Source of the DNA: an uncultured Thermoanaerobaculia bacterium
GTDB lineage: Bacteria > Acidobacteriota > Thermoanaerobaculia > Multivoradales > Multivoraceae
Reading direction: 5' to 3'
Length of the DNA: 64,000 nt
Assembly (NCBI GenBank): GCA_951813015.1
Contig: CATOTG010000002.1
Location: forward strand, 325,310-389,309
The notes under the pieces were generated by a model, which was not told the DNA's origin, ran no database searches, and worked only from the letters and a program-made list of their open reading frames with translations. Positions 29,286-54,720 of this stretch are shown here, piece by piece. Position numbers and translations under genes: made by a program. The stretch's first letter is position 1. Each line of letters opens with the position of its first letter.

Positions 29286-29291
29286 CAGCCC

Positions 29292-30539: not shown

Positions 30540-33500
30540 CGCCCCGCCCCCGCCCGCTCCCCACTTCCCACTTCCCCGGCGAACTCCCCGAACACGACCC
30601 GGAGGTCGGGCAACTCGTTCATGTCCGCAGCCGCCGCTGGCTGGTCGAGCACGTCCGGCCCGGCGAGAGGCCCGGCGAATCCTCGATCGTCCGCCTCGCC
30701 TGCGCCGAAGACGACGCCCAGGGCGAGGAGATCGAGGTCTTCTGGAAGGTCGAGATCGACCGCTGCATCCTGAAGCAGGAAGGCTGGGGCGAACTCGCCG
30801 CGAGAGGATTCGACACGCCGCGCCGGTTCGCCGCCTTCCTCCACACGCTGCGCTGGAACTGCGTCACCGCCACCGACCCGGACCTGTTCCAGGCGCCCTT
30901 CCGCGCCGGCATCAAGCTGGACGCCTACCAGATGGAGCCGCTGCGCAAGGCGCTTCGAATGCCGCGGGTCAACCTCTTCATCGCCGACGACACCGGACTG
31001 GGGAAGACGATCGAGGCCGGCCTGATCGCCCGCGAACTTCTGCTCCGCAAGAAGGTCCGGACGATCGTCGTCTCCGCGCCGAGTTCCGTCCTCGAACAGT
31101 GGCAGGCCGAGATGGAGGAGCGCTTCGGACTGCTGTTCGAGATCCTCGACCGCGCGTACTTCACCCGCATTCGGCGCGAGCGCGGCTTCGGCGTCAACCC
31201 CTGGAAGACCCACAGCCGCTTCCTGGTCTCCCACAACCTGCTCCGGGATCCGACGTACGCCGATCCGATGCGGGCCTGGCTCGGCCCGGTGCTCCGCGGC
31301 AGCCTGTTTATTCTCGACGAAGCACACCACGCGGCGCCTTCGAGCGGCGGACGATACGGCATCGAGTCGAAGTTCACTCGCGCGATTCGGGACCTGAGCC
31401 ACCGCTTCGAGCACCGCCTCTTCCTCTCCGCGACGCCGCACAACGGCCACTCGAACAGCTTCTCCACCCTCCTGGAGCTGCTCGACCCCCATCGATTCAC
31501 ACGCGGAGTCAACGTCCGCAGGGAGTCTCTGGACGCGGTCATGGTGCGCAGGCTCAAGGAGGACATCCGCGAGGTCCAGGGCGGGTTCCCAAGGCGCAAC
31601 GTGGCGCCCGTCAGGATCGAGAGCCTTCCCGAACACCAACCGGAACTCGAACTGTCCCGACTGCTCGACGAGTACCGGGCAGTCCGCGCGGAGAGGTTCA
31701 AGACGGCAACCAGCAGCGCCCGGGCCGCCTCCGGCCTGCTCGTCGTCGGCCTGCAGCAGCGCCTGCTGTCGTCCATCGAGGCGTTCGCGGTCAGCCTGCA
31801 GACCCACCGCAAGACGGTCGCTCGGCAGCGCGACCAGGAACTCCAGCAACAGGCCGGCGCCGCGACGACCGCCCGCGCCAAAACGGAAGCTCAACTCTTC
31901 GTCTCGACATCCGGGGCAACCGGCGCCGACGGCGACCAGGAGGACGAAGCGGCGTGGACCTCGGAGGAGGAAGCCGAGCGGGAAGAAGAGCGGCAGATCG
32001 AGACGATCACCGCCGCGTCGGAAGCAGCCGCGATTTCCGCCGTCAACGGCACAACGACCGAAGCGACGGGCGAGGAACTCTGGCAGCGCGGGAACGCCCT
32101 CCTGGACCGCATGGAGCAGGTCGCCGCGCAAGCCCGTGGCCGGCCCGACGCGAAGACGCGCCGTCTCGTCGACTGGATTCGCGAGAACCTCTGCCCCGAC
32201 CTCCCGCCGCTCGGAACGGCGTTGCCGCCAGGTACGCCGCCACCGCGCTGGAACAACCGGCGGCTGCTGATCTTCACGGAGAACCGCGTGGGCACGAAGC
32301 GCTACCTCCGCAACATGCTGGAGAGCGCCATCGCCTGCTCCGACCGAGCCGAAGATCGCATCGTCACGATCGACGGCCACACCCGCGGCGCCGCCCGGCG
32401 CGAGATCCAGCGCCGGTTCAACGCCGAGCCCGAAGACGATCCGCTGCGCATCCTCCTGGCGACCGACGCCGCCCGCGAGGGACTGAACTTTCAGGCCCAC
32501 TGCACGGACCTGTTCCACTTCGACCTGCCATGGAATCCCGGCCGCATCGAGCAGCGGAACGGTCGCATCGACCGCAAGCTCCAGCCGGCCAGCGAAGTCA
32601 ACTGCCGCTACTTCGTTCTGCCTCAGCGGGCCGAGGACCGCGTACTGGAGGTCCTCGTCGAGAAGACGGAGACGATCCGAAAGGAACTCGGAAGCCTGTC
32701 CAGGGTGATCGACGACCGGATCGAACGTCGCCTGAACAGCGGCGGCATACCCCACGGCACGGTCGACCGACTCGCGGCCGAGATCGCGGCAGCCGATCTT
32801 GAGGTCGAGCGCAAACGCGTCGCCGCCGAGGAACTGGAGAGCGCCCGCCAGCGCCGAAGCGACCTCCAGGACCAGATCAACCGCTGCCAGACCCTGCTCC
32901 AGAACTCGCGAAAGTGGGTCCAGTTCGACGTCGAGCCGTTCCGGGACGCGCTTTCCTGTTCGCTCGAGCTGCTGGGCGCAAAGCCGCTGCAAGCGACGCG
33001 GAACGAGAACCGCGAAACGATCTGGACCTTCCCCGCCCTCGACGGCCAGACCTCCGCCGACCCCACCTGGGCACGCACCCTCGACTCCCTGCGCCGGCCG
33101 CGGCGGCGCAATCAGAAGCTCACCGACTGGCGCAAGGAGCAGCCGCCCCGCCCCATCGTGTTCGAAGACGCCGGCGTGCTGACCGACGAGACGGTCCACC
33201 TGCATCTCGAACAACGGGTAGCGCAGAGGCTCCTCGCTCGCTTTCGCTCCCAGGGCTTCCTTCACCACGACTTGTCGCGCGCCTGTCTCGCCCAAGCCGC
33301 CGACTCGATCCCCAGAGTCGTCCTCCTCGCCCGGCTGTCTCTCTACGGCAGCGGCGCCGAACGGCTGCACGAGCAGGTCATCACCGTGGCCGCGCGCTGG
33401 GTCGAACCGTCGCGCCGCACGGCGCCGCTGAGGGCCTACGCCCGTGACGCGGAACAACGCACGCTCGACCTGCTTGAAGCGTCCCTTGCCGGAACGAGCA

Positions 33501-33922
33501 GACGACCGGTGAACGAGGTTGTAGCGCAGAGGCTCCTGAACGCCGCAGCGCGCGACATAGAGGAACTGCGTCCTCAGCTCGAACCACGAGCCAGGGAACT
33601 CGCCGCAGTCGCGACAAAGCGGCTCCAGGAGCGCGGCGAGCGAGAGTCTCGTGAACTGCGCGCGATTCTGAAACAGCAGCGCCAGCGGGTCCGCGACGAA
33701 CTGCAACTGAGAGACAACCAGTTCGTTCAGCGCACACTCGCCTTCAACCGCGACGAAGAGCGGCAGTTGCAGGCCGACATGCGTTCCTGGCGCACGCGAC
33801 TGGAGCAATTCGACCGCGACCTGGAGCACGAACCCCAACGCATTCGCAACTTCTACGAAGTCCGCGTAGCGCCGCCCGTCGAACCGCTGGGCATCGTCTA
33901 CCTGTGGCCGGAGACGAACTGA
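30536..33922 (+). CDS. SNF2-like superfamily-2 helicase (DISARM DrmD-like)
   Basis: 1128 aa. Motif I LFIADDTGLGKTIEAG, DEAH box ILDEAHHA, LSATPHNG, motif VI QRNGRIDRKLQ. It lies directly upstream of a large N6-adenine methyltransferase. Confidence 0.7.
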   Translation: MTPRPRPLPTSHFPGELPEHDPEVGQLVHVRSRRWLVEHVRPGERPGESSIVRLACAEDDAQGEEIEVFWKVEIDRCILKQEGWGELAARGFDTPRRFAAFLHTLRWNCVTATDPDLFQAPFRAGIKLDAYQMEPLRKALRMPRVNLFIADDTGLGKTIEAGLIARELLLRKKVRTIVVSAPSSVLEQWQAEMEERFGLLFEILDRAYFTRIRRERGFGVNPWKTHSRFLVSHNLLRDPTYADPMRAWLGPVLRGSLFILDEAHHAAPSSGGRYGIESKFTRAIRDLSHRFEHRLFLSATPHNGHSNSFSTLLELLDPHRFTRGVNVRRESLDAVMVRRLKEDIREVQGGFPRRNVAPVRIESLPEHQPELELSRLLDEYRAVRAERFKTATSSARAASGLLVVGLQQRLLSSIEAFAVSLQTHRKTVARQRDQELQQQAGAATTARAKTEAQLFVSTSGATGADGDQEDEAAWTSEEEAEREEERQIETITAASEAAAISAVNGTTTEATGEELWQRGNALLDRMEQVAAQARGRPDAKTRRLVDWIRENLCPDLPPLGTALPPGTPPPRWNNRRLLIFTENRVGTKRYLRNMLESAIACSDRAEDRIVTIDGHTRGAARREIQRRFNAEPEDDPLRILLATDAAREGLNFQAHCTDLFHFDLPWNPGRIEQRNGRIDRKLQPASEVNCRYFVLPQRAEDRVLEVLVEKTETIRKELGSLSRVIDDRIERRLNSGGIPHGTVDRLAAEIAAADLEVERKRVAAEELESARQRRSDLQDQINRCQTLLQNSRKWVQFDVEPFRDALSCSLELLGAKPLQATRNENRETIWTFPALDGQTSADPTWARTLDSLRRPRRRNQKLTDWRKEQPPRPIVFEDAGVLTDETVHLHLEQRVAQRLLARFRSQGFLHHDLSRACLAQAADSIPRVVLLARLSLYGSGAERLHEQVITVAARWVEPSRRTAPLRAYARDAEQRTLDLLEASLAGTSRRPVNEVVAQRLLNAAARDIEELRPQLEPRARELAAVATKRLQERGERESRELRAILKQQRQRVRDELQLRDNQFVQRTLAFNRDEERQLQADMRSWRTRLEQFDRDLEHEPQRIRNFYEVRVAPPVEPLGIVYLWPETN

Positions 33923-33980: not shown

Positions 33981-36900
33981 ATGCCGAAGCTCGACGCGAA
34001 CACAAGAGCCCACCTCGAGTGGCTCGGCTTCGTCCGGCCGACCGGCCTCGTGGTGTCGCCGCCGGCGCTCAACAAGGCCGGCGCCGTGCTGGAACGGGCC
34101 GATCGGGAGGGCCAGCGGCTGCTTCGCGACGCGGTATCCGAGCGGGAGTTCAAGCCCGGCGAAGGTCGCCAGCCCTGGCTGCCCGCCTTCGAGGACTTCG
34201 CCCGCTCGGTCCTCGGCTGGCGCTTCTCTCCCGCGGGCTACGCGGGCGGGAACGCGGCGCCGATTCCCGACGAACTGAGCCTTCACCTTCCGGACTGCGG
34301 CGAGACCCTCCGACCCGACTTCGCGGTCCGCGAACGAAGCCCGGACGAGGATGGCTCGCGCTGGCAACTGCTCGTGCAGACCGTCGAACCGGGCCAGAGC
34401 TTCGACCGCGCGGTCTCCGGCGCCGGCAAGCTGGAAGCCTCCCCGCACAGCCGCATGGAACGCCTGCTGCGAGCGAAGGCGGTTCCCGCCGGGCTGCTGT
34501 TCAACGGCCGCGCCTTGCGCCTCGTCTCGGCGCCGCGCGGCGAGACTTCCGGCTGGATCGATTTCCAACTCGCCGACATGCTGCTTGTCGCGGGCCGCCC
34601 GATCTGCACGGCCCTGCGCCTGCTCCTGAACGAGCAGCGGCTGCTCGCCCTGCCCAGGCGCCAGCGACTGGCTGCGCTTCTCGCGGACAGCCGCAAGTAC
34701 CAGAACGAGGTCAGCGAACGCCTGGCCGAGCAGGTCCTGCATGCCCTCTACGAACTGCTGCGCGGCTTCCAGGCGGCGCACGACGCGTCGAGAAAGGAAC
34801 TCCTGGGCGACCAGTTGCGCGAGGATCCGGGCGGCATCTACCACGGCCTTCTCACCGTGGTGCTGCGCCTGGTCTTCCTGCTCTACGCCGAAGAGCGCGA
34901 TCTCCTCTCCGAAGACGCAACCTTCGTCCGCCACTACTCCCTGGCCAGTCTCCACGACCGGCTGCGGGCCGACGCGGCGCTTCACCCCGACACGATGGAC
35001 CAGCGCTACGGCGCCTGGGCCCAGTTGCTGGCGCTGTTCCGCATGATCCACAACGGCGCCGCAGCCGCCGGCCTCCGCCTCCCGCCACGGCACGGCGTGC
35101 TCTTCGATTTCGACCGCTTTCCGTTCCTGGAGGGTCGGCCCCCGGGAAGCGTGGCCCAGAACCACGAGCGCGTCGCGGCGCCGCTCGTATCCGACGGCAC
35201 GGTTCATCGCGCTCTGGAGAAGCTCCTCGTGCTCGACGGCGACCGCCTCTCCTACCGCGCGCTGGACGTCGAGCAGATCGGCTCCGTCTACGAAACGATG
35301 ATGGGCTTCCGCCTCGAACGCGCCGAGGGACCTTCGTGCGCGATCAAGCCGGCCAAAAGGCACGGCGCGCCCGCCACGGTGAACCTGGCAGCGCTGCTCG
35401 AAAAACCAGTCGATCGGCGCGTCCGCTGGTTCCGCGAACGGACCGACCGCAGGCTGACCGACAAGGCCGCGAAGGCGCTACGGAACGCCCGGACGATCGA
35501 CGAACTTCACGCCGGCCTCGACCGCGTGATCGACCGCGCCGCGACCCCCGACCTGGCGCCGAACGGCCACATGATCCTCCAACCGAGCGATGAACGCCGA
35601 CGCTCGGGCTCGCACTACACGCCGCGCGAACTCACCGAACCGATCGTCCGGGACACCCTGGAACCGATCCTCGACCGGCTGCGAGGGCGAGCCGCGGGAA
35701 GCGCGGGCCAGGGACAGGCAACACCGGCCGCCCTGTCGGCGCCCGCTGAACACGGATCGCGAGTACGTAGCCCACGTCATCAGGGACCGGCAACAGCGCC
35801 CGACCTGTCGGCGCCCGGGCCTTCCGGACCGCATCCGGCTCCGACGACACGAACGCCTCGGCCGGAACAGATCCTCGGGCTCAAGGTCTGCGACCCGGCG
35901 ATGGGCTCCGGCGCCTTCCTCGTCGAAGCCTGCCGTCAACTCGGCGACGTCCTGGTCGACTCCTGGCACGCCCACGACGCGGCGCCGCCCATCCCGCCCG
36001 ACGAAGACGAAACCGTCCACGCCCGGCGTCTCGTCGCCCGCAACTGCCTCTACGGCGTAGATCGCAATCCCGTCGCCGTGGACCTGGCGAAGCTCTCGCT
36101 CTGGCTGACCACCCTCGCCAGGGACCATCCCCTGACGTTCCTCGACCATGCGCTTCGCCACGGCGATTCCCTGGTCGGCCTTGCGCCGGAACAGATCCAG
36201 GCCTTCCACTGGAAGGGCAAGGAGAAGCGCTTCCAGGCCGGCATCGAGACGACCTGGATTCGAGAGCAGGTCAAGAAGGCGTTGCGCCTGAGACGGGCGA
36301 TCCAGGAGGCGCGCGACGACACGCCGGACCGGGTGCTGCGCGATCGGCTGGACGAGGCGGAACACGAACTGGCTCGGGTCAAGCAGAACGGCGATCTCGT
36401 CGTTGCGGCCTTCTTCGAATGCCAGAAGCCGAAGGACCGTGAAGCCCTGCGCCGGTCGTTCGCCGCCGAACTTCAGTTCGAGACTGCGAGCGGCTCAGGG
36501 GGCAAGCCATCGTCCCGGCCTGGCGATGACGCACAAGCATCCGTTCCGGCTTCCGTCTCGGGTCACTCCGGCATGACCGGCCGCATCCGCGCCTCCCGCT
36601 CGGACGCGATCTCGACCATCGGTTGGCTGGAGGAAAGCCGAAACGGCGACCCGCCTCTGGCGCCGTTTCACTGGGCAATCGAGTACCCCGAGGTCTTCCT
36701 GCTTGAAGAGCGCGAGAATCCCGGCTTCGACGGGATCGTCGGCAACCCGCCGTTCGCCGGCAAGAACACGATCGGCAACGCGAACGTACCGGGCTACAAG
36801 GCTTGGCTGAAGCAGCTCCACGAAGAAAGCCACGGCAACGCGGACCTTGTCGCCCACTTCTTCAGGCGCGCGTTCACGCTGGTTCGCGCAGGCGGCGCCT

Positions 36901-38495
36901 TCGGCCTGATCGCCACCAACACGATCGCCCAGGGCGACACGCGCTCGACCGGATTGCGCTTCATCTGCAAGCACGGCGGGGAGATCTTCCGCGCCCGAAG
37001 ACGCGTCAAGTGGCCCGGCTTGGCCGCCGTCGTCGTCAGCGTCGTCCATCTGCACCGCGGTCCCTGGCATGGTCCGCGGATGCTCGACGGCGTGCCGCAA
37101 CCGAAGATCACGGCCTTCCTGTTTCACCGCGGCGGGCACGAGGATCCTGCACGCCTCGCCGAGAACGCCGGCAAGAGCTTCCAGGGCAGCATCGTGCTCG
37201 GCATGGGTTTCACCTTCGACGATACGGACACGAAGGGCGTGGCGACGCCGATTGCCGAGATGAACCGCCTGGTCGAACAGGACCCGAAGAACAGGGAGGC
37301 GATCTTCCCGTACATCGGCGGCGCCGAGGTCAACAAGAGCCCGACGCACGGGCATCACCGGTACGTGATCAACTTCCGGGACTACCCGCTGCGCCGGGCC
37401 GATCCCGGGTCCGCGGCGCCGGGCCGCCGGGGCGCGGCGGCGCAGAGCGGTCGCGCCCTCGGAGACAGTCCGGTTGCGTTGTCGACCGGTGAGCCCAACT
37501 CCCCCCACGTCAGCGGATCCCGACTCGGCCTCGGCGTCGTTCGAAGTGCCGTCCGCCGGGCGCCGCCTTCGCGCCGCTCTTTGGAGCGCGGCTCGCTTCA
37601 GGTGGATGATCGGCAGGAACCAGGATCGATCCCGGAAGGCACGGCCACGTCGTGGCACGGCGCCTCCGATGGGCAGCGCGAGGAGTGGCGCCGCAGCGGG
37701 ATCGTGCCGCATGACTATCCGGATCCGGTTGCGGCGGACTGGCCGGAGCTGCTGGCGATCGTTGAGGAGCGTGTCAAGCCCGATAGAGACGTGCAGAAGC
37801 GCAAGGCACTGCGCGAGCGCTGGTGGCAGTACGCCGAGAAGAGACCCGGGCTCTACAAAGCCATCGCCGACCTCGACCGCGTGTTGGCGATCAACTGTGG
37901 TGCAACGCCACATCTGGCCTTGGCGTTTCTTCCCGCCAAGATGGTCTTTGCGCACAGTTTGGCAGTCTTTCCCTTCCCCACCCACGCCGCCTTCTGCGCC
38001 CTCCAGTCCCGCCCTCACGAACTCTGGGCGCGCTTCTTCGGATCCTCTCTGGAGGACCGACTCAGGTACACGCCGTCCGACTGCTTCGAGACCTTTCCCT
38101 TCCCCGAGAACTGGGAGACTCACTCCGACCTGGAAGTCGCCGGCGCCGCGTACCACGGTTTCCGAGCCGACCTGATGCTCCGGAGCGTCGAGGGCCTGAC
38201 GAAGACGTACAACCGCTTCCACGATCCTGAGGAGCAGAGCCCCGGCATCACCCGGCTTCGCGAGCTCCACGCGGCCATGGACCGTGCCGTCCTCGACGCC
38301 TACGGCTGGACCGACATCTCCACCGACTGCGAGTTCCTCCTCGACCACGAGATCGACGAGAGACCTGAGGGCAAGAAAAAGAAGCCCTACCGCTACCGCT
38401 GGCCCGACGAAGTCCGCGACGAGGTGCTCGCCCGCCTGCTCGAACTCAACGCCCAACGCGCCGCCGAGGAGAAGCGCAGCGGTTCCCGCCGATGA
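33981..38495 (+). CDS. Large N6-adenine DNA methyltransferase, gamma class (DISARM DrmMI-like; PglX/Eco57I-like)
   Basis: 1504 aa. SAM-binding motif I VCDPAMGSGAFLVEA and catalytic motif IV IVGNPPFAGKN. Long N- and C-terminal extensions. No nuclease domain recognised. Confidence 0.75.
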   Translation: MPKLDANTRAHLEWLGFVRPTGLVVSPPALNKAGAVLERADREGQRLLRDAVSEREFKPGEGRQPWLPAFEDFARSVLGWRFSPAGYAGGNAAPIPDELSLHLPDCGETLRPDFAVRERSPDEDGSRWQLLVQTVEPGQSFDRAVSGAGKLEASPHSRMERLLRAKAVPAGLLFNGRALRLVSAPRGETSGWIDFQLADMLLVAGRPICTALRLLLNEQRLLALPRRQRLAALLADSRKYQNEVSERLAEQVLHALYELLRGFQAAHDASRKELLGDQLREDPGGIYHGLLTVVLRLVFLLYAEERDLLSEDATFVRHYSLASLHDRLRADAALHPDTMDQRYGAWAQLLALFRMIHNGAAAAGLRLPPRHGVLFDFDRFPFLEGRPPGSVAQNHERVAAPLVSDGTVHRALEKLLVLDGDRLSYRALDVEQIGSVYETMMGFRLERAEGPSCAIKPAKRHGAPATVNLAALLEKPVDRRVRWFRERTDRRLTDKAAKALRNARTIDELHAGLDRVIDRAATPDLAPNGHMILQPSDERRRSGSHYTPRELTEPIVRDTLEPILDRLRGRAAGSAGQGQATPAALSAPAEHGSRVRSPRHQGPATAPDLSAPGPSGPHPAPTTRTPRPEQILGLKVCDPAMGSGAFLVEACRQLGDVLVDSWHAHDAAPPIPPDEDETVHARRLVARNCLYGVDRNPVAVDLAKLSLWLTTLARDHPLTFLDHALRHGDSLVGLAPEQIQAFHWKGKEKRFQAGIETTWIREQVKKALRLRRAIQEARDDTPDRVLRDRLDEAEHELARVKQNGDLVVAAFFECQKPKDREALRRSFAAELQFETASGSGGKPSSRPGDDAQASVPASVSGHSGMTGRIRASRSDAISTIGWLEESRNGDPPLAPFHWAIEYPEVFLLEERENPGFDGIVGNPPFAGKNTIGNANVPGYKAWLKQLHEESHGNADLVAHFFRRAFTLVRAGGAFGLIATNTIAQGDTRSTGLRFICKHGGEIFRARRRVKWPGLAAVVVSVVHLHRGPWHGPRMLDGVPQPKITAFLFHRGGHEDPARLAENAGKSFQGSIVLGMGFTFDDTDTKGVATPIAEMNRLVEQDPKNREAIFPYIGGAEVNKSPTHGHHRYVINFRDYPLRRADPGSAAPGRRGAAAQSGRALGDSPVALSTGEPNSPHVSGSRLGLGVVRSAVRRAPPSRRSLERGSLQVDDRQEPGSIPEGTATSWHGASDGQREEWRRSGIVPHDYPDPVAADWPELLAIVEERVKPDRDVQKRKALRERWWQYAEKRPGLYKAIADLDRVLAINCGATPHLALAFLPAKMVFAHSLAVFPFPTHAAFCALQSRPHELWARFFGSSLEDRLRYTPSDCFETFPFPENWETHSDLEVAGAAYHGFRADLMLRSVEGLTKTYNRFHDPEEQSPGITRLRELHAAMDRAVLDAYGWTDISTDCEFLLDHEIDERPEGKKKKPYRYRWPDEVRDEVLARLLELNAQRAAEEKRSGSRR

Positions 38496-38639
38496 GAAGC
38501 CTGGACCGCCCTAGGTCCAGGTCCGATCACGTCGCGGCCCCGCTTTGCAGTCACCCCTGCCCGTGTGAGAGAGTTGTCCGCAGCAAGCCGACCGGCCCAC
38601 CAGTGCCGACACCTCCCTCGCCTTCCCGCGCACCCCGCC

Positions 38640-39635
38640 ATGACTAGCGGCAAGCTTTTGCGCCGACTCATCGTCTCGGGCGCCGATGGCGACCTCGCGG
38701 CATTCCGTGCCGCCGCGGACGACGTGATCGCCGACGAGCGGCAGAAGCAACACCACCTCCTGGCGAACGACCTCGAGTCCATTCTCTATGGCCGCACTCG
38801 CGCTCCCACGTCGCCTGGCCTGCGGAGGCTCGCCCAGGCGGTCCCCGAGGATCGAGAGCGTGGTTTGGCCTTGCTGTCACTGCGCGAGCCCGTCCGTGGA
38901 ATCGAGGACGTTGTTCTCTCAAGCTCCAACCGCTCCATCGTCCGGGCCGTCCTTCACGAGCAAAACCGCGAGGAACTGCTTCAAGCGCACGGGCTCCGGC
39001 CCGTCGATCGTCTCCTGTTGTGCGGACCGCCCGGCTGCGGCAAGACGCTGACCGCAGAGGTCATCGCAAATGAGCTCGGCAGACCTCTCGCCATCGTCCG
39101 GGTCGACAGCGTCGTGTCTTCTTTCCTGGGTGAAACCGCAGCCAATCTGCGTCGCGTCTTTGACTTCATCGAAACGACGCCGACAGTAGCGCTCTTCGAC
39201 GAGTTCGACGCCTTGGGCAAGGAGCGGGACGACTCCTCGGAACACGGCGAGCTGCGCCGCGTTGTCAACGCGGTGCTGCAGATGCTTGACGCATACGACG
39301 GCCGCAGCCTCATCGTCGCTGCCACCAATCACCAATCCATGCTCGACTCGGCCGTCTGGCGCCGTTTTGAGGAGATCCTCTATCTGAGGCTGCCGACCGC
39401 AAGGCAGATTCGGGAGCTCCTCCGCGTCAAGCTGCGCGGCGTACGCCGAGCCTTCGACATCGACGCGGTCGCCGTTGAGTCGCTCTTCCCCAAAAGTACG
39501 CACGCCGACGTCGAGCGCGTGCTTCGCCGAGCCGTCAAGGAAATGGTCCTGAGCGGTGAAGGTCGCCTTGGCCTGAACCACATCCGCAGGGCCGTGCGCC
39601 GAGAGAAGGCGCGGCGTCAACCTGGGCGTACTTGA
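38640..39635 (+). CDS. AAA+ ATPase (IetA-like)
   Basis: ATG 38640 (MTSGKLLRRL). Classic AAA domain LLCGPPGCGKTLTAEVIA, Walker B ALFDEFDAL, and SRH with Arg finger. Confidence 0.65.
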   Translation: MTSGKLLRRLIVSGADGDLAAFRAAADDVIADERQKQHHLLANDLESILYGRTRAPTSPGLRRLAQAVPEDRERGLALLSLREPVRGIEDVVLSSSNRSIVRAVLHEQNREELLQAHGLRPVDRLLLCGPPGCGKTLTAEVIANELGRPLAIVRVDSVVSSFLGETAANLRRVFDFIETTPTVALFDEFDALGKERDDSSEHGELRRVVNAVLQMLDAYDGRSLIVAATNHQSMLDSAVWRRFEEILYLRLPTARQIRELLRVKLRGVRRAFDIDAVAVESLFPKSTHADVERVLRRAVKEMVLSGEGRLGLNHIRRAVRREKARRQPGRT

Positions 39636-39644
39636 GTCAGGCCA

Positions 39645-42008
39645 TTGCAGCAGCGCCTCTTCGATCACACACAAATGCGCCCGCACCTGCGCCTCAACCG
39701 AGAGCGGCCAACCACAAAGCGCCGCCCGCCTGGCGGATTCCCTCCTTCCCCGCCTCCGCCACAGGATCCGCAGGTCCACGGAGCCTCGCTGCACCAGAAA
39801 CTGCGTTCCGCACGCGAAAAGGCCGCCGCGGCTCTCGGCGGCTACGACCAGCGACGATTGATCAAGCTCAAGCTGGCAACGCAAGTATCGCCGGAGGCTC
39901 TCGCCCGGATTTCGCCCGGGATGGAGGCAGTAAGCCAGGAGGGCGAGAAGCTGATTCTCTACTTTGCGACCGACGATGCGCTGGAGACGTTTGAGGCGAA
40001 ACTCTCAAGTCTCAGCCAAGGCGAGGCGGTAACGCGCAAGGACCTGCTCTACGCTCTCAGCGACATCGATCATTGGAGCGAGGACGACCGCACTGGCCGG
40101 AGCCTCAAGCAGCACGGTCTGCCACCGGGCAAATCGGTAACGCTCGATGTGGAGCTATGGCCGTTGGACAGCCCGCAGGCCCCAACGCTTGCCACTTTCT
40201 CCGAGTGGTTGAAGGAACGTGGCGGCAAGGTCCTGGACAAGGTGAAGAAGGCCTACCTTGTGCTGTGCCGTGTCCGTTGCGACCGCGCTGTTGCCAGCGA
40301 CCTGCTTCGACACCGGGACGTTCGCACAATCGAACTTCCTCCGCGTCTGGCCCTGCCCCGGGAGATTCTCAGCGCCGATGTCCAGAACATTCCCGAGGTT
40401 GAAGCGCCACTGACCGATGCACCCGCTATCGTGGTTCTCGACTCCGGCCTCGCTTCCGGACACCCTCTGCTCGCACCCGCCGTGGGAGATTCCCAGAGCT
40501 TCCTGCCGGGCAGGTCGGCAGCCGACGAACACGGCCACGGTACGCTGGTCTCGGGCATCGCCCTGTACGGCGACGTAGCGAAAGCAATGGGCGCCCAGAG
40601 CCTTGTCCCGGATCTGCGTCTTTTCAGCGGACGGATACTGGACGAAACGAACCAGAGCAACGAGTCCCTCGTCGAGAACCAGATCGAAGACGCGGTCCGC
40701 TACTTCGTGGATCACTACGGCTGCCGCGTGTTCAACCTCTCCTACGGCGATCCCAACAGGTCCTACGAAGGCGGCAGGATCACGGGCCTCGCTGTGACGC
40801 TGGATGCGCTGAGTCGAGAACTGGGTGTGCTGTTCGTTGTACCCACCGGCAACTACGAGGGCGGCCCTGAGGGGCCGGAAGACTGGCGAGAAGACTACCC
40901 TGACTATTTGTCTGAGTCGAGTGCCCGCCTTCTCGACCCGGCCCCCGCCTTGAATGCCCTCACCGTCGGAAGTCTGGCACGTTGGGAGAAAACGATTCAG
41001 GCCGAAAGCTATTCAGACGATCCTGCCTACCAGCCCGTAGCGCGAACCGACGAACCGTCCCCGTTTACCAGAAGCGGCCCTTCGGTGAGAGGCGCGATCA
41101 AACCGGATCTTGTCGACTACGGTGGCAATCGAGCCGTTGATCTGCGGACGGGAAGCGAACTCACCGTCGGCAGGGCCGGCATCGGCGAACGCTCGACATC
41201 TCGCGACTTCGCGGCCGGCTCGCCATTCGCCGAGGGCTGCGGAACAAGCTTCGCCGCTCCGCGAGTCGCGCATGTTGCCGCGCACCTGCTGAGGGAGCTT
41301 CCAGGCGCAAGCGCCAATCTCTGCCGCGCTCTCCTCGTCGCGCACGCGCGGACTTCGCTCGCCTGCGCTGAGCTCTTCTCAGATGACCGCGCCGCCCTCC
41401 GCCGAATCACCGGCTACGGTCTGATCGACCGCTCCGCTCTCTACCGTTCGCCCGACGATTGCGTCTCGCTCTGGGCGACGGAGTCGATGACCAACAATCG
41501 GCACCACTTCTACGAGCTGCCGGTCCCGGATGAGTTCTGGTCTTCAGGTCGCCGCGAGCGGAGGATCACCGTTGCTCTTGCCTACTCTCCCGCTGTGAGG
41601 ACGACGCGCATCGACTACCGCGCGGCGAAAATCAGCTTCAAGTTGGTACAGGCTCAGTCGCTCGACGAAGTCGCCAGCTGGTTCAGCGCGGTGGAAGACA
41701 ATCCGGGAGCAGCACCGGTTGCCGAGCTGCCCACGGGAAGGAACATCACGGAGCAAAACCGCTCAAAGGGAACAGTGCAGGCTTCGAGTTGGACCTTTAC
41801 CGTAGCGAACCAATCCAGAAAGAAAGGATCCTGGTTCGTGGTCGTCACGCGCAACGATTTCCCGTGGGGGCAGAACATCTCCAACGAAAATGAAGAATAC
41901 GCTCTCGTAGCCACGATCGCGGATCGGCAATTTGCCGAGGCGCGACTCTATTCGCAGATCCAGGTCAGACTCCGACAACGCGCTCGAGCTCGAGCGAGCG
42001 ACCGTTGA
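39645..42008 (+). CDS. Subtilisin-like S8 serine peptidase (IetS-like)
   Basis: About 780 aa, starting 10 nt after the AAA gene. Start is either TTG 39645 or ATG 39675. Catalytic triad contexts VVLDSG (Asp), HGHGTLVSG (His), GTSFAAPRVA (Ser). Confidence 0.65.
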   Translation: MQQRLFDHTQMRPHLRLNRERPTTKRRPPGGFPPSPPPPQDPQVHGASLHQKLRSAREKAAAALGGYDQRRLIKLKLATQVSPEALARISPGMEAVSQEGEKLILYFATDDALETFEAKLSSLSQGEAVTRKDLLYALSDIDHWSEDDRTGRSLKQHGLPPGKSVTLDVELWPLDSPQAPTLATFSEWLKERGGKVLDKVKKAYLVLCRVRCDRAVASDLLRHRDVRTIELPPRLALPREILSADVQNIPEVEAPLTDAPAIVVLDSGLASGHPLLAPAVGDSQSFLPGRSAADEHGHGTLVSGIALYGDVAKAMGAQSLVPDLRLFSGRILDETNQSNESLVENQIEDAVRYFVDHYGCRVFNLSYGDPNRSYEGGRITGLAVTLDALSRELGVLFVVPTGNYEGGPEGPEDWREDYPDYLSESSARLLDPAPALNALTVGSLARWEKTIQAESYSDDPAYQPVARTDEPSPFTRSGPSVRGAIKPDLVDYGGNRAVDLRTGSELTVGRAGIGERSTSRDFAAGSPFAEGCGTSFAAPRVAHVAAHLLRELPGASANLCRALLVAHARTSLACAELFSDDRAALRRITGYGLIDRSALYRSPDDCVSLWATESMTNNRHHFYELPVPDEFWSSGRRERRITVALAYSPAVRTTRIDYRAAKISFKLVQAQSLDEVASWFSAVEDNPGAAPVAELPTGRNITEQNRSKGTVQASSWTFTVANQSRKKGSWFVVVTRNDFPWGQNISNENEEYALVATIADRQFAEARLYSQIQVRLRQRARARASDR

Positions 42009-42293
42009 CCAATATGCCGCCCTCAACCTCGCCCTTCCCGTTCAACCGCCACCGTCTCGCCGCCTCTGAGCTTCTCGGAGTCCGTTCCGGCACAACATCG
42101 AGGCCCGGGCCGACCGGCGCGGGCAAGTGACGGCGTTCACCTTCGACAGCCTGACCAGCATCCCCCGCCCCGTCCCCTGCAGCGAACTTCAGAGACTGGA
42201 TTGCGTCGGTCCCGCGAACTACGTGGCGGCAGAACCGATTTCACACGATCAACTCCTGAGGATCGTTCAGGCGGGCTTCCGAGAATCGGGCTC

Positions 42294-42782
42294 ATGACCG
42301 ACATCCTCATGTCGATCAAGCCGCCGTACGTCGACATGATCGTCTCCGGCTCCAAGACGGTCGAGATCCGGAAGCGAGCTGTCCGGGTACCAGCGGGAGC
42401 AAGGATCTGGATCTACGCAACCAGTCCGCGGCGGCAGGTAGTCGCATCCGCCCGGCTCGAAGAAGTCGTGCTCGACACGGCGGACGAGATCTGGCGCACC
42501 TTCGGCGACCGGGCCGGCATCGACCGCCTCGACTTCAACGCCTACGTTGGAGACAGCAGACTCGTCGCCGCACTATCCCTGACCGACGTCACCGCACTCG
42601 CCGCGCCACTATGCCCTCGCAGCGAGACGCCGGCATTCCGCCCGCCGCAGTCCTACTCGTTCCTTCGTGATGCCGAACTTCTGGCAGCCTTGGAGGAAAG
42701 GCATAGCACGGAGCGTTCAGCAGACGAGAACCAGATCAGTCCTCCGGCGCAACCAACCGAAACGGCCTTCGCAACCCCGTAG
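42294..42782 (+). CDS. ASCH-domain (PUA-like) protein
   Basis: N-terminus MTDILMSIKPPYVDMIVSGSKTVEIRKR matches the ASCH/EVE-type beta-barrel signature. About 160 aa. Start chosen inside ORF 42201..42782. Confidence 0.6.
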   Translation: MTDILMSIKPPYVDMIVSGSKTVEIRKRAVRVPAGARIWIYATSPRRQVVASARLEEVVLDTADEIWRTFGDRAGIDRLDFNAYVGDSRLVAALSLTDVTALAAPLCPRSETPAFRPPQSYSFLRDAELLAALEERHSTERSADENQISPPAQPTETAFATP

Positions 42783-42998: not shown

Positions 42999-44156
42999 CT
43001 AATGAAACAAGGCCTCCTGCTTCGGGAGAAGCGACAGTGACCCTCCGCGCCGCCTGAGCCGTTTTTGCTGCTTTAGTTCCGCCTCTACATCTCCAAGGTG
43101 CTTCCACCTCCAGATCTTCGAGCGCAGCTCCTCCTTCAGGACGTCCCTCAAGACCGGCCCCGCCTGGAGCCTGGCCACCAACCACCGACGCAGCGGCGCC
43201 AGATCGGGCTTCTCTTCGATCAAAAGGAACTGGTTCGGGTTCTCGGATCGCCGCACGCTCATGCTGCCGCCGGGGCAAACCGTCCAGACACACTCCTTCA
43301 TCAGGTCCCGTCCGTCATCGTGATTCGTCAGATGGAGCAGAAAGAAGCGCACCGCATCGCCACCCGAGACCATCCGCACATGGGTCCACCACTTCGCGCC
43401 TACTCGATCAGCCAGCAGCTTCGCGGCCTGATCGGCCCTCTCAACCATCGTTTCGCCCCGGATGTTCCGCCACGCATCGCCTCCGAAGAGCCGGTCGAGA
43501 TTCTCGGCCTGACCGTGTCCAGCTTTGAGCTCCTGGTGCATCGCCATGTCGAGTTCGCGCCACATCACGTTGACGAAGAGCTCGACGCGCTCAAACTCCA
43601 TGATCTCCGCGAGCAGGTCGCCCGGCAAACTGAAGCCATACGGATCCACGAAGAGGAAGGCAGGCGCCATCTGCTGACCCGCTGACTTCAGGGCGTCGAC
43701 CTCCCGGCGCAACACCTCGAACGCGTCGCCCGGCTCGACATCGACGACGATCCGGCGGGGCAGATCTTCAATCCGCTCAACCTCTCCCCTCAGCTCGGAC
43801 GCGTTCTGTTCATCCAGCTCCAGAAACACGAACCGGAACTCGGAGTTTTCCAAGAGCCGGTCTCTCGCCGTGTGGTCAAGCAGCGTCCTCAGCGCCACGA
43901 GTGGCGAACCGGGATTCTCGCCTGCATAGCTACCACGCCCGGCGTGAGTGTCAAAGTACACGACTTTGCCGGACCACAAGCCGAGTTTGGGAAACCAGCC
44001 TTTCAGGTAGGCGTCAATCAGCTCGTGCTTGACCCGCTGGAAACGACCGTAGTCCCTCCAATGATCCGGCTGTGGATCGACAGATCTGTTCACAGTCCCT
44101 TGGTCCTCAGTTCGCCGGGAACTCGTCGTAAGTCCTACCCTTGAGCAGGCGCCCAT
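42999..44156 (-). CDS. Three-Cys-motif partner protein TcmP-like
   Basis: 385-aa ORF encoded immediately downstream of a Gp37/Gp68 gene, overlapping it by 14-50 nt depending on the start. An alternative GTG start lies about 21 codons in. Confidence 0.55.
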   Translation of the reverse strand: MGACSRVGLTTSSRRTEDQGTVNRSVDPQPDHWRDYGRFQRVKHELIDAYLKGWFPKLGLWSGKVVYFDTHAGRGSYAGENPGSPLVALRTLLDHTARDRLLENSEFRFVFLELDEQNASELRGEVERIEDLPRRIVVDVEPGDAFEVLRREVDALKSAGQQMAPAFLFVDPYGFSLPGDLLAEIMEFERVELFVNVMWRELDMAMHQELKAGHGQAENLDRLFGGDAWRNIRGETMVERADQAAKLLADRVGAKWWTHVRMVSGGDAVRFFLLHLTNHDDGRDLMKECVWTVCPGGSMSVRRSENPNQFLLIEEKPDLAPLRRWLVARLQAGPVLRDVLKEELRSKIWRWKHLGDVEAELKQQKRLRRRGGSLSLLPKQEALFH

Positions 44157-44832
44157 TCACATGCTTCCGCGGCCCTCCCCACTGCTTGAAGAAGAAGGGG
44201 ACGTCATCTCGCCGGCACTGAAGCAGGACATTGATCACCCACGCTTCCAGCATGGGCCGCGCTCCGGGACCGCTCTCGCCGCCGACGATGACCCAGTCGA
44301 TGCCGGTCAGGTCGAACTCCTCCAGATCCTCAAGAAGCGGTTCGATTGAGGCAAAGCGAACCGCTGCCGGCGTCTGCCGTAACGCCTGCAGCCGCGGCAA
44401 GCCCTGCCGTCGGTTCTCGACGCTCACTCCAAACCAGACGTTCGGCAACTCACCCATCCAGGAAAGAGGCCCCACAAGAAGCTCGTGCATTCGCTCGTGT
44501 CTCTTCGTGAGCACCTGGTAGGTGTGTCGCTGGACTTCGCTCATCACCCGGCCCACCTCGGCGATGTAGCTCACGGGAACCTGCGGATGGAAGAGGTCGC
44601 TCATCGAGTTCACGAACACGCGGCGAGGCCGACGCCAGCGACGCGGCTGATCAAGCTTGGCCGGTACCAGGCGAAGGTCGAAACCCTGCTCGAAGGGGTG
44701 CCTCGGGACGCCACGGAAGCGCTCCGAGAAGCGCTCTGCGTAGCAATGTGCGCAGCCTGCACTGACCTTTGTGCAGCCGAGCACCGGGTTCCAGGTCGCG
44801 TCGGTCCATTCGATCGCACTCTTCTCTGACAT
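44107..44832 (-). CDS. Phage Gp37/Gp68 family protein (DUF5131)
   Basis: N-terminus IEWTDATWNPVLGCTKVSAGCAHCYAE is the family three-Cys signature. ATG 44832 is preceded by GGAGAG. 241 aa. Confidence 0.7.
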   Translation of the reverse strand: MSEKSAIEWTDATWNPVLGCTKVSAGCAHCYAERFSERFRGVPRHPFEQGFDLRLVPAKLDQPRRWRRPRRVFVNSMSDLFHPQVPVSYIAEVGRVMSEVQRHTYQVLTKRHERMHELLVGPLSWMGELPNVWFGVSVENRRQGLPRLQALRQTPAAVRFASIEPLLEDLEEFDLTGIDWVIVGGESGPGARPMLEAWVINVLLQCRRDDVPFFFKQWGGPRKHVNGRLLKGRTYDEFPAN

Positions 44833-44898: not shown

Positions 44899-44983
44899 AA
44901 AGCGCAACTAGGGCGTAACCGGAGCCGCACCATCCAAGCTCTTTGCGGAACAGGAGCGGGAGGACCGCCCGCCCGCCGGGAAG

Positions 44984-46019
44984 TTGCGCGCCGACGCACT
45001 GGCTCTGGTGGCGGAGAGCGCGCTTGCGGGAGGTCTCGATCCTGGAACCAGCGGCGACCGATACCAGGTCGTCGTTCACGTCAACGACCGTGAGTTGGAA
45101 GCCCCCGAATCCGCGGCCACGAGGAACCGGCCCGGCGTTTCCGCGGGAACGCCGCGGCAGGCCGAAGTCCAGGCCAACGGCGCGGCGGAAGTGAACGGCC
45201 GCGTTCCCGCGGGAACGTCGGTGCACCCCGAAGTTCAGGCCAACGGAGCGGCAGGAGTAGACGGCCACGTTCCCGCGGGAACGTCGGGGGACCCGGCGCG
45301 ACGCTCTGTCGCAGCCGAATCTGCCAGGACCGAATCTGCCGACTGCGAGCACTCCGCCGGCGCCTGGGTGGGCAGGTCGCATGTCCGCGTTTCCGCTGAA
45401 ACGGCTCAGGCGCATCGCCTGCGACGCCGGGAAGGTCGTCATGCGGCACCGTTCCGGGCAGATCCTGAGCGTGGGCCGCAAGACGCGGACCATCCCGCCG
45501 CCCATCCGCCGCGCCCTGGAGTTCCGCGACCGGGGCTGCCGCTTCCCCGGCTGCACCTCGCAGCACTGCGACGCCCACCACATCGAGCACTGGGCCGACG
45601 GCGGCGAAACGAAGCTCTCGAACCTCGTGCTGCTCTGCCGCCGACACCACCGCCTGCTCCACGAAGGCGGTTTCAGCCTGCGCATGGACGACCAAGGCGC
45701 CGTGGGGTTCTACAACTCGCGCGGGCGACTGCTCGAACGGAGCCCGGCGCCGCCGGTCGTCGGCGACGACGCCGCCCGGGAGTTGATCGAACACCTGGAG
45801 GATGCTGGCATCCTGATCACCGGGGACGAATCGATGCCGGCCTGGAACGGTGAACCGATGGACCTGCACTACGTCATGAAATGCCTGTGGAGACCGCCTC
45901 CGCACCTCGAAGCCATCGTGGCCCGGGAGCGGGGTACCTCCAAACAGCTCGTCGACCCGGCGCAGCCAGAGTCTCCTCACCAGACGAGCAGCTCCTCACT
46001 CTCGCCCTTCGGGCGCTAG
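44984..46019 (+). pseudogene. DUF222/HNH endonuclease (13E12-type), 5'-truncated and frameshifted
   Basis: Two frames carry homologous pieces. Frame 44984..: ADALALVAESALAGG...RYQVVVHV (DUF222 middle region). Frame 45381..46019: HNH core with CRFPGC...HHIEHWADGG...LLCRRHHRLLHEGG. No complete N-terminal domain. Confidence 0.6.
45135..45283. repeat. Tandem ~66-bp duplication carrying three copies of the 16-bp palindrome cgttcccgcgggaacg
   Basis: Palindromes at 45135-45150 (one mismatch), 45201-45216 and 45268-45283. They lie inside the HNH pseudogene. Confidence 0.6.
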
Positions 46020-46116
46020 TACAGCGAAGAGCGCGAGAGGTCGAGCAGACGGCACTGGCGGAAAAGGCTCAACGCCTCTTCGTCCCGCTTCACCATCCGC
46101 CTGCGCTCGGGCCGGC

Positions 46117-46431
46117 TCAGTGCCCGAGCCTTCTCGACAAGAAGTCCCGCTCGACCGTCAACTCCCCGATCTTCGCCTGCAGGTCCCTGACCTCCTCCTC
46201 CCGGTCACGGCGACGCTCCGGCCCCGCCGAGAAGGTCTCCTGCATCCCCTCGACCGCCTTCCGCTTCCAACTGCCGACCTGGTCCGGGTGAACGCCGTGC
46301 CGCGACGCAATCGCCGAAATCGGTTTCCCCTGGCGCAGCGCCTCGAGCGCCACCTTCGACTTCTCCTGGCTCCTCCTCTCGGTTGAGGAGTACACCTTAG
46401 CCACCTGTCCAGTTCTTCGGGGCCACCTCAT
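46117..46431 (-). mobile_element. IS3-family transposase orfA (HTH) remnant with no orfB
   Basis: 104 aa (...KVALEALRQGKPISAIASRHGVHPDQVGSWKRK...ELTVERDFLSRRLG) matches the IS3/IS911 OrfA consensus. No integrase-domain ORF or inverted repeats follow. Confidence 0.65.
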
Positions 46432-46508
46432 CGTTCAGGGTTGGACGCGAAGAGTGAGGTGGTGAGCGCGGTTGACGCCCGCCGCACCCATGTGTCACAT
46501 TTGTGCAC

Positions 46509-46748
46509 ATGGAACAGATCGGCATTCGCGAACTCCATCTGAAGACCGGCGAGTGGGTGCGGCGAGCCGCCAGAGGACGGGGCGTCGTCGTCACGGAGCG
46601 TGGCCGCCCGGTGGCTTCGCTTCTACCGTTCCGCGAAGACGCACTGGGGGTTTCCTTCGCCGACCGTCAACTGCTGCCCGAGTTCGAGGCCCTGCCGGAG
46701 ATCCGCGGCGACTCGGCCGCGGGTATCTCGGAGGACCGGGACCGCTAG
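46509..46748 (+). CDS. Type II antitoxin, Phd/YefM family
   Basis: MEQIGIRELHLKTGEWVRRAARGRGVVVTERGRPVASLLPF. 79 aa. Followed immediately by a PIN-domain gene. Confidence 0.7.
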   Translation: MEQIGIRELHLKTGEWVRRAARGRGVVVTERGRPVASLLPFREDALGVSFADRQLLPEFEALPEIRGDSAAGISEDRDR

Positions 46749-47191
46749 TGGCGTACTTCGACACCGCCTATCTGGTCAAGTGCTACGTGAAGGAGGAAGG
46801 GTGGGACAGCGTCCGAGCGTTGGCTGCCGAGCGCGGCTGGGTTGCCTGCTCGGTGTTTGGGCGCCTGGAGCTGCACGCGGCGCTGCACCGGACATTCCGT
46901 GAGGGTCGCCTCACACGAAGGGAGCTTGAGGTCGTCCTCGATCAACTGAGCGCCGACGAGGCGATGAGAATGTGGCACTGGCTGCCGCTCTCCGCGGCGG
47001 TGAGGACGGCGGTAGTTGACCTGTTCGGGCAGCTTGCACCGGGAGTCTTCCTGCGAACCGGGGACGCGGTCCACCTGATGTCGGCCAGGGAGAGCGGCTT
47101 TCGGGAGGTCTTCAGCAATGACCGACGCCTCCTGGCGGCGGCACGGCACGTCGGCATCACCGGCGTGGATGTCATCGGAGGGCGCCAGTGA
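46748..47191 (+). CDS. vapC: Type II toxin VapC (PIN domain)
   Basis: GTG 46748 overlaps the antitoxin stop as taGTG. PIN acidic residues VAYFDTAYLVK...; 147 aa. Confidence 0.7.
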   Translation: MAYFDTAYLVKCYVKEEGWDSVRALAAERGWVACSVFGRLELHAALHRTFREGRLTRRELEVVLDQLSADEAMRMWHWLPLSAAVRTAVVDLFGQLAPGVFLRTGDAVHLMSARESGFREVFSNDRRLLAAARHVGITGVDVIGGRQ

Positions 47192-54665: not shown

Positions 54666-54720
54666 CGATGTACCGGGCCGCACCTCCGCCGGCATCGGCG
54701 ACCGGCACGACCGGGCGAAG

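Follow-up and report, generated by a model that had tools for sequence, protein, structure and literature searches.

A predicted Y4kK-type IetAS pair between DrmMI and DrmA of a class 1 DISARM locus in an uncultured Thermoanaerobaculia bacterium

The IetA and IetS genes

Two adjacent + strand genes in the 64,000-nucleotide (nt) stretch analysed here (the window; positions 325,310 to 389,309 of contig CATOTG010000002.1, from an uncultured Thermoanaerobaculia bacterium) encode an AAA+ ATPase, IetA, and an S8 peptidase, IetS, which together form a predicted IetAS anti-phage pair inside a class 1 DISARM defence locus. Such a pair had been proposed from the DNA letters alone (the original prediction), and the two open reading frames (ORFs), one for a 331-amino-acid AAA+ ATPase and one for an S8 peptidase, are both present as described there. 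Positions below are those of the window and IetS residues follow the numbering of the 787-amino-acid product. The features of the pair are:

38640-39635, + strand: IetA, 331-amino-acid classic-clade AAA+ ATPase (PADLOC, Pfam, motifs)
39645 (TTG)-42008, + strand: IetS, predicted cytoplasmic S8 peptidase, 787 amino acids (PADLOC, Pfam)
39762-40340, + strand: IetS N-terminal region, residues ~40-232, two alpha/beta units (Pfam Y4kK_N/Y4kK_2nd)
40422-41420, + strand: IetS S8 catalytic domain, residues 260-592 (Pfam Peptidase_S8 PF00082, E = 2.7e-37)
40440-40442, + strand: IetS Asp266
40536-40538, + strand: IetS His298
40851-40853, + strand: IetS oxyanion Asn403
41247-41249, + strand: IetS Ser535
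41442-42005, + strand: IetS C-terminal beta-rich domain, residues ~600-787, common to IetS of the pTi plasmid

The IetA ORF opens further upstream, at GTG 38565, and ATG 38640 is an internal start that yields the 331-residue product; this start is favoured because homologues are 328-335 amino acids long and the model alignment begins at residue 4. For IetS, the ambiguity between TTG 39645 and the in-frame ATG 39675 (product 777 amino acids), already pointed out in the original prediction, persists: about 10 residues precede a conserved HPHLEL motif in the homologues, which favours the TTG, and a database protein 97% identical to the window IetS (P0001) was called from the ATG. No Shine-Dalgarno-like sequence was found upstream of either codon. 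The tight adjacency of the two genes holds, with a gap of 9 nt instead of the 10 nt given before, measured from the IetA stop (39633-39635) to the IetS TTG. The IetA TGA and the IetS TTG (39633-39647) share a reading frame, three codons apart, which is probably due to chance; a read-through fusion of the two proteins was considered and rejected, as spacing and frame vary among relatives. A promoter and terminator scan of 38300-42400 returned nothing above chance, and no repeats flanking the IetAS cassette were found.

IetA contains a Pfam AAA domain (PF00004, E = 3.7e-30, residues 125-250) with a Walker A motif, GPPGCGKT (39024-39047), a Walker B motif, VALFDE (39186-39203), an aromatic pore-loop motif, SFLGET, an AATN motif and RRF arginine fingers, all of which are kept across 67 homologues. 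SFLGET resembles the pore loops of the substrate-threading classic AAA+ proteins Vps4, katanin and p97. Judged by these motifs, IetA carries the full set predicted for a hexameric substrate-threading classic AAA+ ATPase, and its hydropathy profile gave no hydrophobic N-terminus or transmembrane segment.

The intact Asp/His/Ser triad claimed for IetS is borne out by the homologue alignments: D266, H298 and S535, together with the oxyanion residue N403, are invariant in a 25-sequence alignment, and in a 113-sequence alignment His298, Asn403 and Ser535 are again invariant and Asp266 is kept in at least 90%. Hydropathy indicated no signal peptide or transmembrane segment in IetS (Kyte-Doolittle 19-residue mean, maximum 0.15 in the first 70 residues and 1.49 over the whole protein). 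IetS is hence best described as a predicted cytoplasmic subtilase whose active site is intact. Structure models of the protein are confident solely for residues 41-230 (AlphaFold predicted local distance difference test score, pLDDT, 72-91) and residues ~600-787 (pLDDT about 62-93). The former region, to which Pfam assigns PF27160/PF27210 (Y4kK_N, Y4kK_2nd) on a 97% homologue, has weak fold matches to pro-subtilisin and ACT-like domains, and the latter has weak matches to jelly-roll-like folds. A sequence search of the PDB found no IetA or IetS structures, the IetS matches being subtilisins only.

Family assignment

Hidden Markov model (HMM) comparison with the PADLOC models of IetA and IetS gave full-length matches for both proteins, in agreement with the proposed IetAS assignment. 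IetA matched model PDLC02196 at 1.6e-93 (residues 4-324 on model positions 4-323 of 374) as well as three further IetA models, and IetS matched PDLC02198 at 7.8e-257 (residues 14-786 on model positions 6-789 of 795) as well as seven further IetS models. With HMM E-values of 1e-93 and 1e-257, and with the gene order kept in 78 of 80 related loci (see below), the pair is not due to chance. The best NCBIfam matches were IteA_antiphage for IetA (2.4e-69, 234.3 bits against a cut-off of 510) and IteS_antiphage for IetS (6.5e-44, 150.3 bits against a cut-off of 900); since both scores lie below the equivalog cut-offs, the window pair belongs to a divergent subfamily and is no ortholog of the curated pair. 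On the strength of these profile matches, we assign it as a genuine IetAS member of a 'Y4kK-type' subfamily.

Other NCBIfam families gave weaker matches. IetA matched PAN at 1.6e-27 (96.6 bits, cut-off 500) and CDC48 with 90.5 bits (cut-off 802), which have only the generic AAA module in common with it; its FtsH match was far weaker than that to IteA, and EccA was matched at 4.6e-06 (25.5 bits, cut-off 466.65). The mycosin match of IetS reached 3.2e-13 (49.5 bits, cut-off 278.75). The original prediction had named two alternatives, an ATPase that groups with proteasome-associated or CbbX-type proteins and a secreted nutritional subtilase. Neither found support, the PAN match (1.6e-27) falling well behind IteA (2.4e-69) and IetS having no signal peptide or transmembrane segment; PADLOC and Pfam annotation of the window revealed no type VII secretion system (T7SS) or proteasome genes near the pair. 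Because the ATPase does not group with the proteasomal or CbbX type, the protease has no signal peptide and the IetAS models do match, the IetAS interpretation stands.

Relatives of the pair and their settings

A search for IetS relatives returned 1884 homologues at E<=1e-10, hundreds of them full length, and 80 related genome loci, drawn from many phyla, formed the basis of the context analysis. IetA is followed by IetS in 78 of these (the other two end at contig edges), with a spacing of 0-23 nt in most. Genes in the loci were called by a codon-position GC score; since some calls are unreliable where GC is 0.69 or higher, the context classes rest on tblastn, with the window proteins and proteins identified in the loci as probes. 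Three settings emerged. In setting A the pair is embedded in DISARM (15 of the 80 loci, plus the window). Setting B, found in about 33 loci, consists of a helicase, IetA, IetS, optional cargo (AIPR/AbiU, DUF4391 or RhuM) and a type III Mod and Res, the helicase being either a DrmD-type SNF2 protein (PADLOC DrmD, 2.7e-203) or UvrD-PDDEXK. In setting C (two loci), an SNF2 protein and a type IIG-like methylase precede IetAS. The rest fit none of these settings, and many of them are short contigs.

The clade that contains the window's IetS in a neighbour-joining tree has 20 members from several phyla, 14 of which occupy the DrmMI-DrmA slot of a DISARM locus. The six others (L009, L012, L013, L015, L017 and L165) had no helicase or restriction-modification (R-M) neighbours and are stand-alone pairs among non-defence genes. 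Separate look-ups added one methylase-linked and one free-standing locus. Stand-alone pairs also occur on plasmids, one of them next to where the record of a small plasmid begins. The Y4kK-type lineage spans Acidobacteriota, Chloroflexota, Bacteroidota-type metagenome-assembled genomes (MAGs) and others, and within the loci collected here the subfamily appears rarely free-standing in chromosomes, being found mostly inside helicase, methylase and restriction operons in many phyla.

The closest studied relative is ietHAS, and the original prediction is to be amended in this respect: the identity as IetAS stands, but the nearest studied system is this helicase-dependent variant and not the classic two-gene type. 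ietHAS (Liu-DS4) was described in 2026 as a form of IetAS whose additional component, IetH, is an SNF2 helicase 'resembling DrmD', and was reported from Pseudomonadota alone. Its defence depends on the Walker A (K65A) and DEAH (D165A) residues of IetH; ietH mutants are toxic, cloning of an ietA mutant did not succeed, and the mechanism of IetAS is stated to be unknown (PMC13069673). We identified the E. coli ietHAS operon indirectly, through an SNF2 protein that has K65 and D165 at exactly the published IetH motifs. The E. coli trio is directly followed by a DNA methyltransferase gene and a DEAD/DEAH Res-like gene in all 74 genomes (74/74), which fits an earlier report of the co-localisation of type III R-M and ietAS. 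In E. coli NZ_CP038857.1 (L166, 6757-17592) this gives a five-gene operon, SNF2-IetA-IetS-methyltransferase-DEAD/DEAH helicase, located on an island bearing a tyrosine integrase beside tRNA-Leu, and the five-gene operon is also present in O104:H4 and in strain 042.

The DISARM locus and its cargo

The pair was said to lie between the methyltransferase and restriction modules of a DISARM-like locus. It does sit between DrmMI and DrmA, and the locus goes beyond likeness: by its PADLOC matches it is a complete class 1 DISARM, with five genes in one orientation and in canonical order. DrmMI ends 145 nt before IetA, and 10.9 kb of cargo, IetAS included, separate DrmMI from DrmA. The closest relative of the locus (L001) is on a Thermoanaerobaculia MAG chromosome with 96-97% DNA identity and the same gene order. 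The genes and other features around IetAS are:

30536-33922, + strand: DrmD, SNF2 helicase of class 1 DISARM (PADLOC PDLC02621, 4.2e-302)
33981-38495, + strand: DrmMI, N6-adenine methyltransferase (PADLOC PDLC02643, E=0, 1308 bits; Pfam Eco57I/MmeI domains)
42201-42782, + strand: ASCH-domain protein, PDC-M11B (6.5e-30), candidate defence cargo
42999-44156, - strand: PDC-M30A/M41A, candidate defence cargo
44107-44832, - strand: DUF5131, PDC-M41B (4.3e-101), candidate defence cargo
45381-46019, + strand: HNH endonuclease ORF
46117-46431, - strand: IS3-family OrfA-like remnant (HTH_Tnp_1, 6.8e-9)
46503-46748, + strand: Phd-type antitoxin
46745-47191, + strand: PIN toxin; 3' part of the gene missing in L001
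47202-47396, + strand: DrmA 5' relic (N-terminus), 65 amino acids, 63% identical to the resident DrmA
47592-48797, + strand: HEC-01A, ABC/AAA_21 ATPase (1.6e-159)
48800-49399, + strand: HEC-01B (3.1e-67)
49396-52821, + strand: DrmA (PADLOC, 2.3e-275)
52818-54665, + strand: DrmB (PADLOC, 7.3e-81)
54616-55635, + strand: DrmC (PADLOC, 1.7e-68; the match starts at residue 82 of the ORF)

At least four independent passenger modules, IetAS among them, share the variable DrmMI-DrmA slot. The window and L001 differ by four indels, all within the DISARM locus and none in IetAS. A 1.15-kb block (44935-46085) is missing from L001; in this block a palindrome, CGTTCCCGCGGGAACG, occurs in three to four copies 66 nt apart (45131-45294), followed by the HNH ORF. 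Within DrmMI, the window has 267 in-frame nt (37397-37663) at a place where there are 38 nt in L001; this segment codes for low-complexity sequence rich in Pro, Arg and Ser and is unique within the window and the loci. The HEC-01A/B candidate system is complete in the window and abuts DrmA, and L001 is deleted for most of HEC-01B (48820-49277). Part of the DrmA 5' relic, which is located upstream of HEC-01A/B and 2 kb short of where the true DrmA begins, also occurs in L001. Its appearance suggests that cargo was inserted or exchanged at the 5' end of DrmA and left this scar.

Just upstream of DrmD (28169-30539) are SNF2 helicase fragments, comprising the SNF2-related start of ORF 28169-29848 and a Helicase_C segment (28809-29285), as well as a 415-amino-acid helix-turn-helix protein. 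Homology between the window and L001 starts only at 30577, L001 having a DcuC transporter upstream instead. There were no Rfam or tRNA matches in the window, and no integration site was therefore identified.

Cassette exchange at the DrmMI-DrmA junction

In the reverse direction, a sample of 80 metagenomic class 1 DISARM loci was anchored on DrmA (37-67% identity), and none of the 80 contained IetA or IetS. IetAS is a rare occupant of the DrmMI-DrmA slot, and its absence from all 80 sampled loci indicates that DISARM does not need it. The distance from DrmMI to DrmA is 65-171 nt in about 20 of roughly 46 sampled loci, and 26 DrmA-anchored loci have a gap of 0.8-9.2 kb. ORFs in these gaps match 102 PADLOC families, including DarT, RmrA/CapP, a type IV restriction endonuclease, AbiLi, HEC-06 and AriA, and from this variety we conclude that the junction is a general hotspot for embedded cargo.

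Several observations bear on how IetAS came to this position. In the DrmA tree, loci with IetAS belong to two or more lineages and are interspersed with loci that lack it. IetS proteins of L002, L004 and L006 are as near to the window's as that of L005 (59-60%), while their DrmA proteins are more distant (50-52% versus 63% for L005). The position of IetAS relative to DrmMI and DrmA varies, other cargo being found on either side. In L010, a further piece of DrmMI 3' sequence (7093-7275), with 79% identity to that of the window, lies between the locus's own DrmMI and IetA; a lone DrmMI 3' fragment precedes IetA in L030 (8518-8892), and DrmA and DrmB fragments are found downstream in L014 (19368-20003). 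Such isolated fragments beside IetAS, in loci that carry the complete gene elsewhere or lack it, are scars of recombination or decay. In addition, the GC content at third codon positions (GC3) of IetS is below that of the DISARM core in 14 of 14 loci (the window, L001, L002, L004-L008, L010, L011, L016, L018, L025 and L028), the core exceeding the IetA/IetS mean by 0.09 on average, which could reflect either a foreign origin or gene-specific codon usage. The idea of a specific co-transfer of IetAS and the DrmMI 3' end found no more than partial support: in loci with IetAS, similarity is higher by about 10 points in every DrmMI slice and not in the last alone.

Taken together, the discordant histories, the scars, the GC3 difference and the rarity of IetAS favour cassette exchange via the conserved flanking genes, and IetAS probably reached its slot by such recombinational exchange between DISARM loci. 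Cassette exchange alone would suffice to keep a cargo lineage 'trapped' in DISARM. Separately, the alphaproteobacterial loci L002 (6039-8866) and L004 (5915-8772) carry a ParA/MinD-like ATPase and a 480-amino-acid protein without a Pfam match between DrmMI and IetA, a recurrent cargo pair.

Discussion

The best explanation for the IetAS module, by analogy with its studied relatives, is a two-gene, toxin-antitoxin-like abortive-infection defence unit. In these relatives, the toxin is IetS, defence depends on its protease activity and IetA acts as the restraint (PMC13069673; bioRxiv 10.1101/2022.08.27.505566), and the Bacillus IetAS causes abortive infection triggered by the SPbeta protein YosG (bioRxiv 10.1101/2022.08.27.505566). 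Applied to the window, IetA, with ATP, would hold or remodel IetS in an inactive state in uninfected cells; an infection cue would lift this restraint, and the freed IetS would then cleave essential host or phage proteins, so that growth and phage production stop. We believe that the pair is an autonomous, exchangeable cargo that provides a second layer behind DISARM, and give this reading a probability of roughly 0.6. Its autonomy is supported by the stand-alone pairs on plasmids and by the members of the window's clade that lie among non-defence genes.

A number of observations weigh against this view. The autonomy of the window pair is not assured, given that the helicase is required in the E. 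coli ietHAS, the sole studied member of the subfamily. The window's clade is largely DISARM-embedded (14/20) and its sister clades adjoin SNF2 helicases, so that selection for coupling could explain the association with DISARM as well as trapping by flanking homology does, and the trees themselves are rough neighbour-joining ones. As for the mechanism, the mode of restraint by IetA, the trigger and the substrates of IetS are all points that we infer, and the structure model of IetS is poor for the catalytic core. Finally, compared with L001 the ratio of nonsynonymous to synonymous divergence (omega) of IetS is about 0.79 (dN 0.0134, dS 0.0170), a value that is imprecise because substitution counts are small (dS 0.017), and the substitutions P571S and P739F, derived in the window, fall on IetS positions at which at least 94% of the family agree; the window's IetS copy could thus be under relaxed constraint.

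An alternative, which we regard as possible if on the unlikely side, is that IetAS is coupled to DISARM, with DrmD in the role of IetH and IetAS serving as a guard or back-up when a phage inhibits or overwhelms the helicase or the R-M machinery. PrrC sits inside the EcoprrI type I R-M locus and is held in check by EcoprrI, and a guard function of IetAS might by analogy be hypothesised. In ietHAS, the closest studied relative (IetA 55%, IetS 41%), the SNF2 ATPase is needed and its inactivation is toxic, and the E. coli trio is always followed by Mod and Res. About 50 of the 80 loci of the lineage lie inside operons of an SNF2 or UvrD helicase with methylase and restriction genes, or inside DISARM, and the 14 DISARM-embedded members of the window's clade share the DrmMI-DrmA position across several phyla. 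Moreover, IetAS is co-oriented with DrmD and DrmMI, and the scan of 38300-42400 gave no + strand terminator-like site between them. On the other hand, DrmD is not adjacent to IetA, DrmMI lying between the two, and has helicase motifs alone in common with IetH; members of the window's clade exist without a nearby helicase, the 80 DrmA-anchored class 1 loci are free of IetAS, the histories of IetS and DrmA are discordant, and many unrelated cargos occupy the same slot. A broader form of this idea, which we hold more doubtful still, is that the Y4kK-type IetAS would be a dedicated companion of SNF2-containing restriction-like systems, spread by flanking-gene recombination, in which the resident helicase (DrmD or 'IetH') acts as sensor or restraint and the protease provides an abortive fallback once the restriction layer is disabled or saturated by a phage. 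It would follow that the published 'IetH' is the SNF2 subunit of a host R-M-like system.

That the pair is mainly an addiction module, stabilising the defence island through post-segregational killing and not acting as an anti-phage effector, seems improbable to us. IetAS is cited in PMC13069673 as first described as a plasmid-stabilising toxin-antitoxin pair of pTiC58, stand-alone pairs are found on plasmids, and the Phd/PIN toxin-antitoxin pair lies in the same cargo region. However, the relatives defend against phage and the neighbours are defence genes, and the two roles are compatible with each other.

Very improbable, in our view, is a decaying or inactive IetAS in the window that persists as a remnant among the other cargo. 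Besides the omega of IetS, which compares with 0.25-0.29 for IetA, DrmD and DrmA against L001, this would be in line with the 10 of 22 amino-acid differences between the window's IetS and its 97% relative that are window-derived (P571S and P739F included) and with the indels and remnants in the neighbouring cargo. Yet both ORFs are full length and free of frameshifts, all catalytic residues of IetS and ATPase residues of IetA are intact, IetA is under purifying selection, and the few substitutions leave the IetS value imprecise. An unrelated housekeeping pair, in which a secreted nutritional subtilase or T7SS mycosin lies beside a proteasomal, EccA- or CbbX-type AAA protein, has a negligible chance of being right: the weak PAN (1.6e-27), mycosin (3.2e-13) and EccA (4.6e-06) matches that point to it lie far under their cut-offs and are far weaker than those to IteA, IteS and the PADLOC models, IetS has no signal peptide or transmembrane segment, and T7SS or proteasome genes are not nearby.

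The pair itself is routine, as PADLOC-type annotation would call the window IetAS unaided. The analysis contributes mainly the context, namely the setting of the Y4kK-type lineage inside helicase, methylase and restriction operons; the Mod and Res genes that accompany ietHAS in all 74 E. coli genomes are not discussed in the ietHAS publication. In addition, the junction between DrmMI and DrmA is seen here to be a hotspot of cargo exchange, where scars of recombination are still visible. If true, a protease that monitors the restriction machinery would offer a concrete, testable model for the trigger of IetAS and would illustrate how DISARM can take part in a layered 'guard' immunity. We found no description of IetAS in the DrmMI-DrmA slot, or of any link between IetAS and DISARM, in the literature searched.

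Comparison with known systems

Among known systems, ietHAS is nearest to the window pair. The full-length IetA proteins are 55% identical and the IetS proteins 41% identical over residues 41-784 of the window protein, the N-terminal Y4kK-type domains included; in both cases an SNF2 helicase belongs to the co-oriented operon and the pair lies among methylase and restriction-type genes. The E. coli helicase directly precedes IetA, whereas in the window DrmMI stands between DrmD and IetA, and the E. coli partners are a type III-like Mod and Res, whereas the window partner is a class 1 DISARM. DrmD and IetH have helicase motifs alone in common, with 27-31% identity in two patches.

IetAS was reportedly described as an anti-phage system by Gao et al. 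in 2020. The classic IetAS pairs (pTiC58, Gao et al. 2020, B. cereus) have the same two-gene order, AAA+ followed by S8. The pTi IetA is collinear with the window's IetA (35% identity over residues 1-266), and the pTi IetS is 26% identical to the window's IetS over residues 252-772, the S8 and C-terminal domains, whereas its N-terminus has no similarity to the N-terminal ~250 residues of the window protein. Classic pairs are stand-alone; the window pair lies inside DISARM. Compared with class 1 DISARM in turn, the window has the five genes but also 10.9 kb between DrmMI and DrmA. Embedded defence, as represented by the HEC candidates inside Hma and by PrrC inside the EcoprrI type I R-M locus, offers a further parallel: a toxic effector module is placed inside a restriction-type operon, in a slot with variable cargo.

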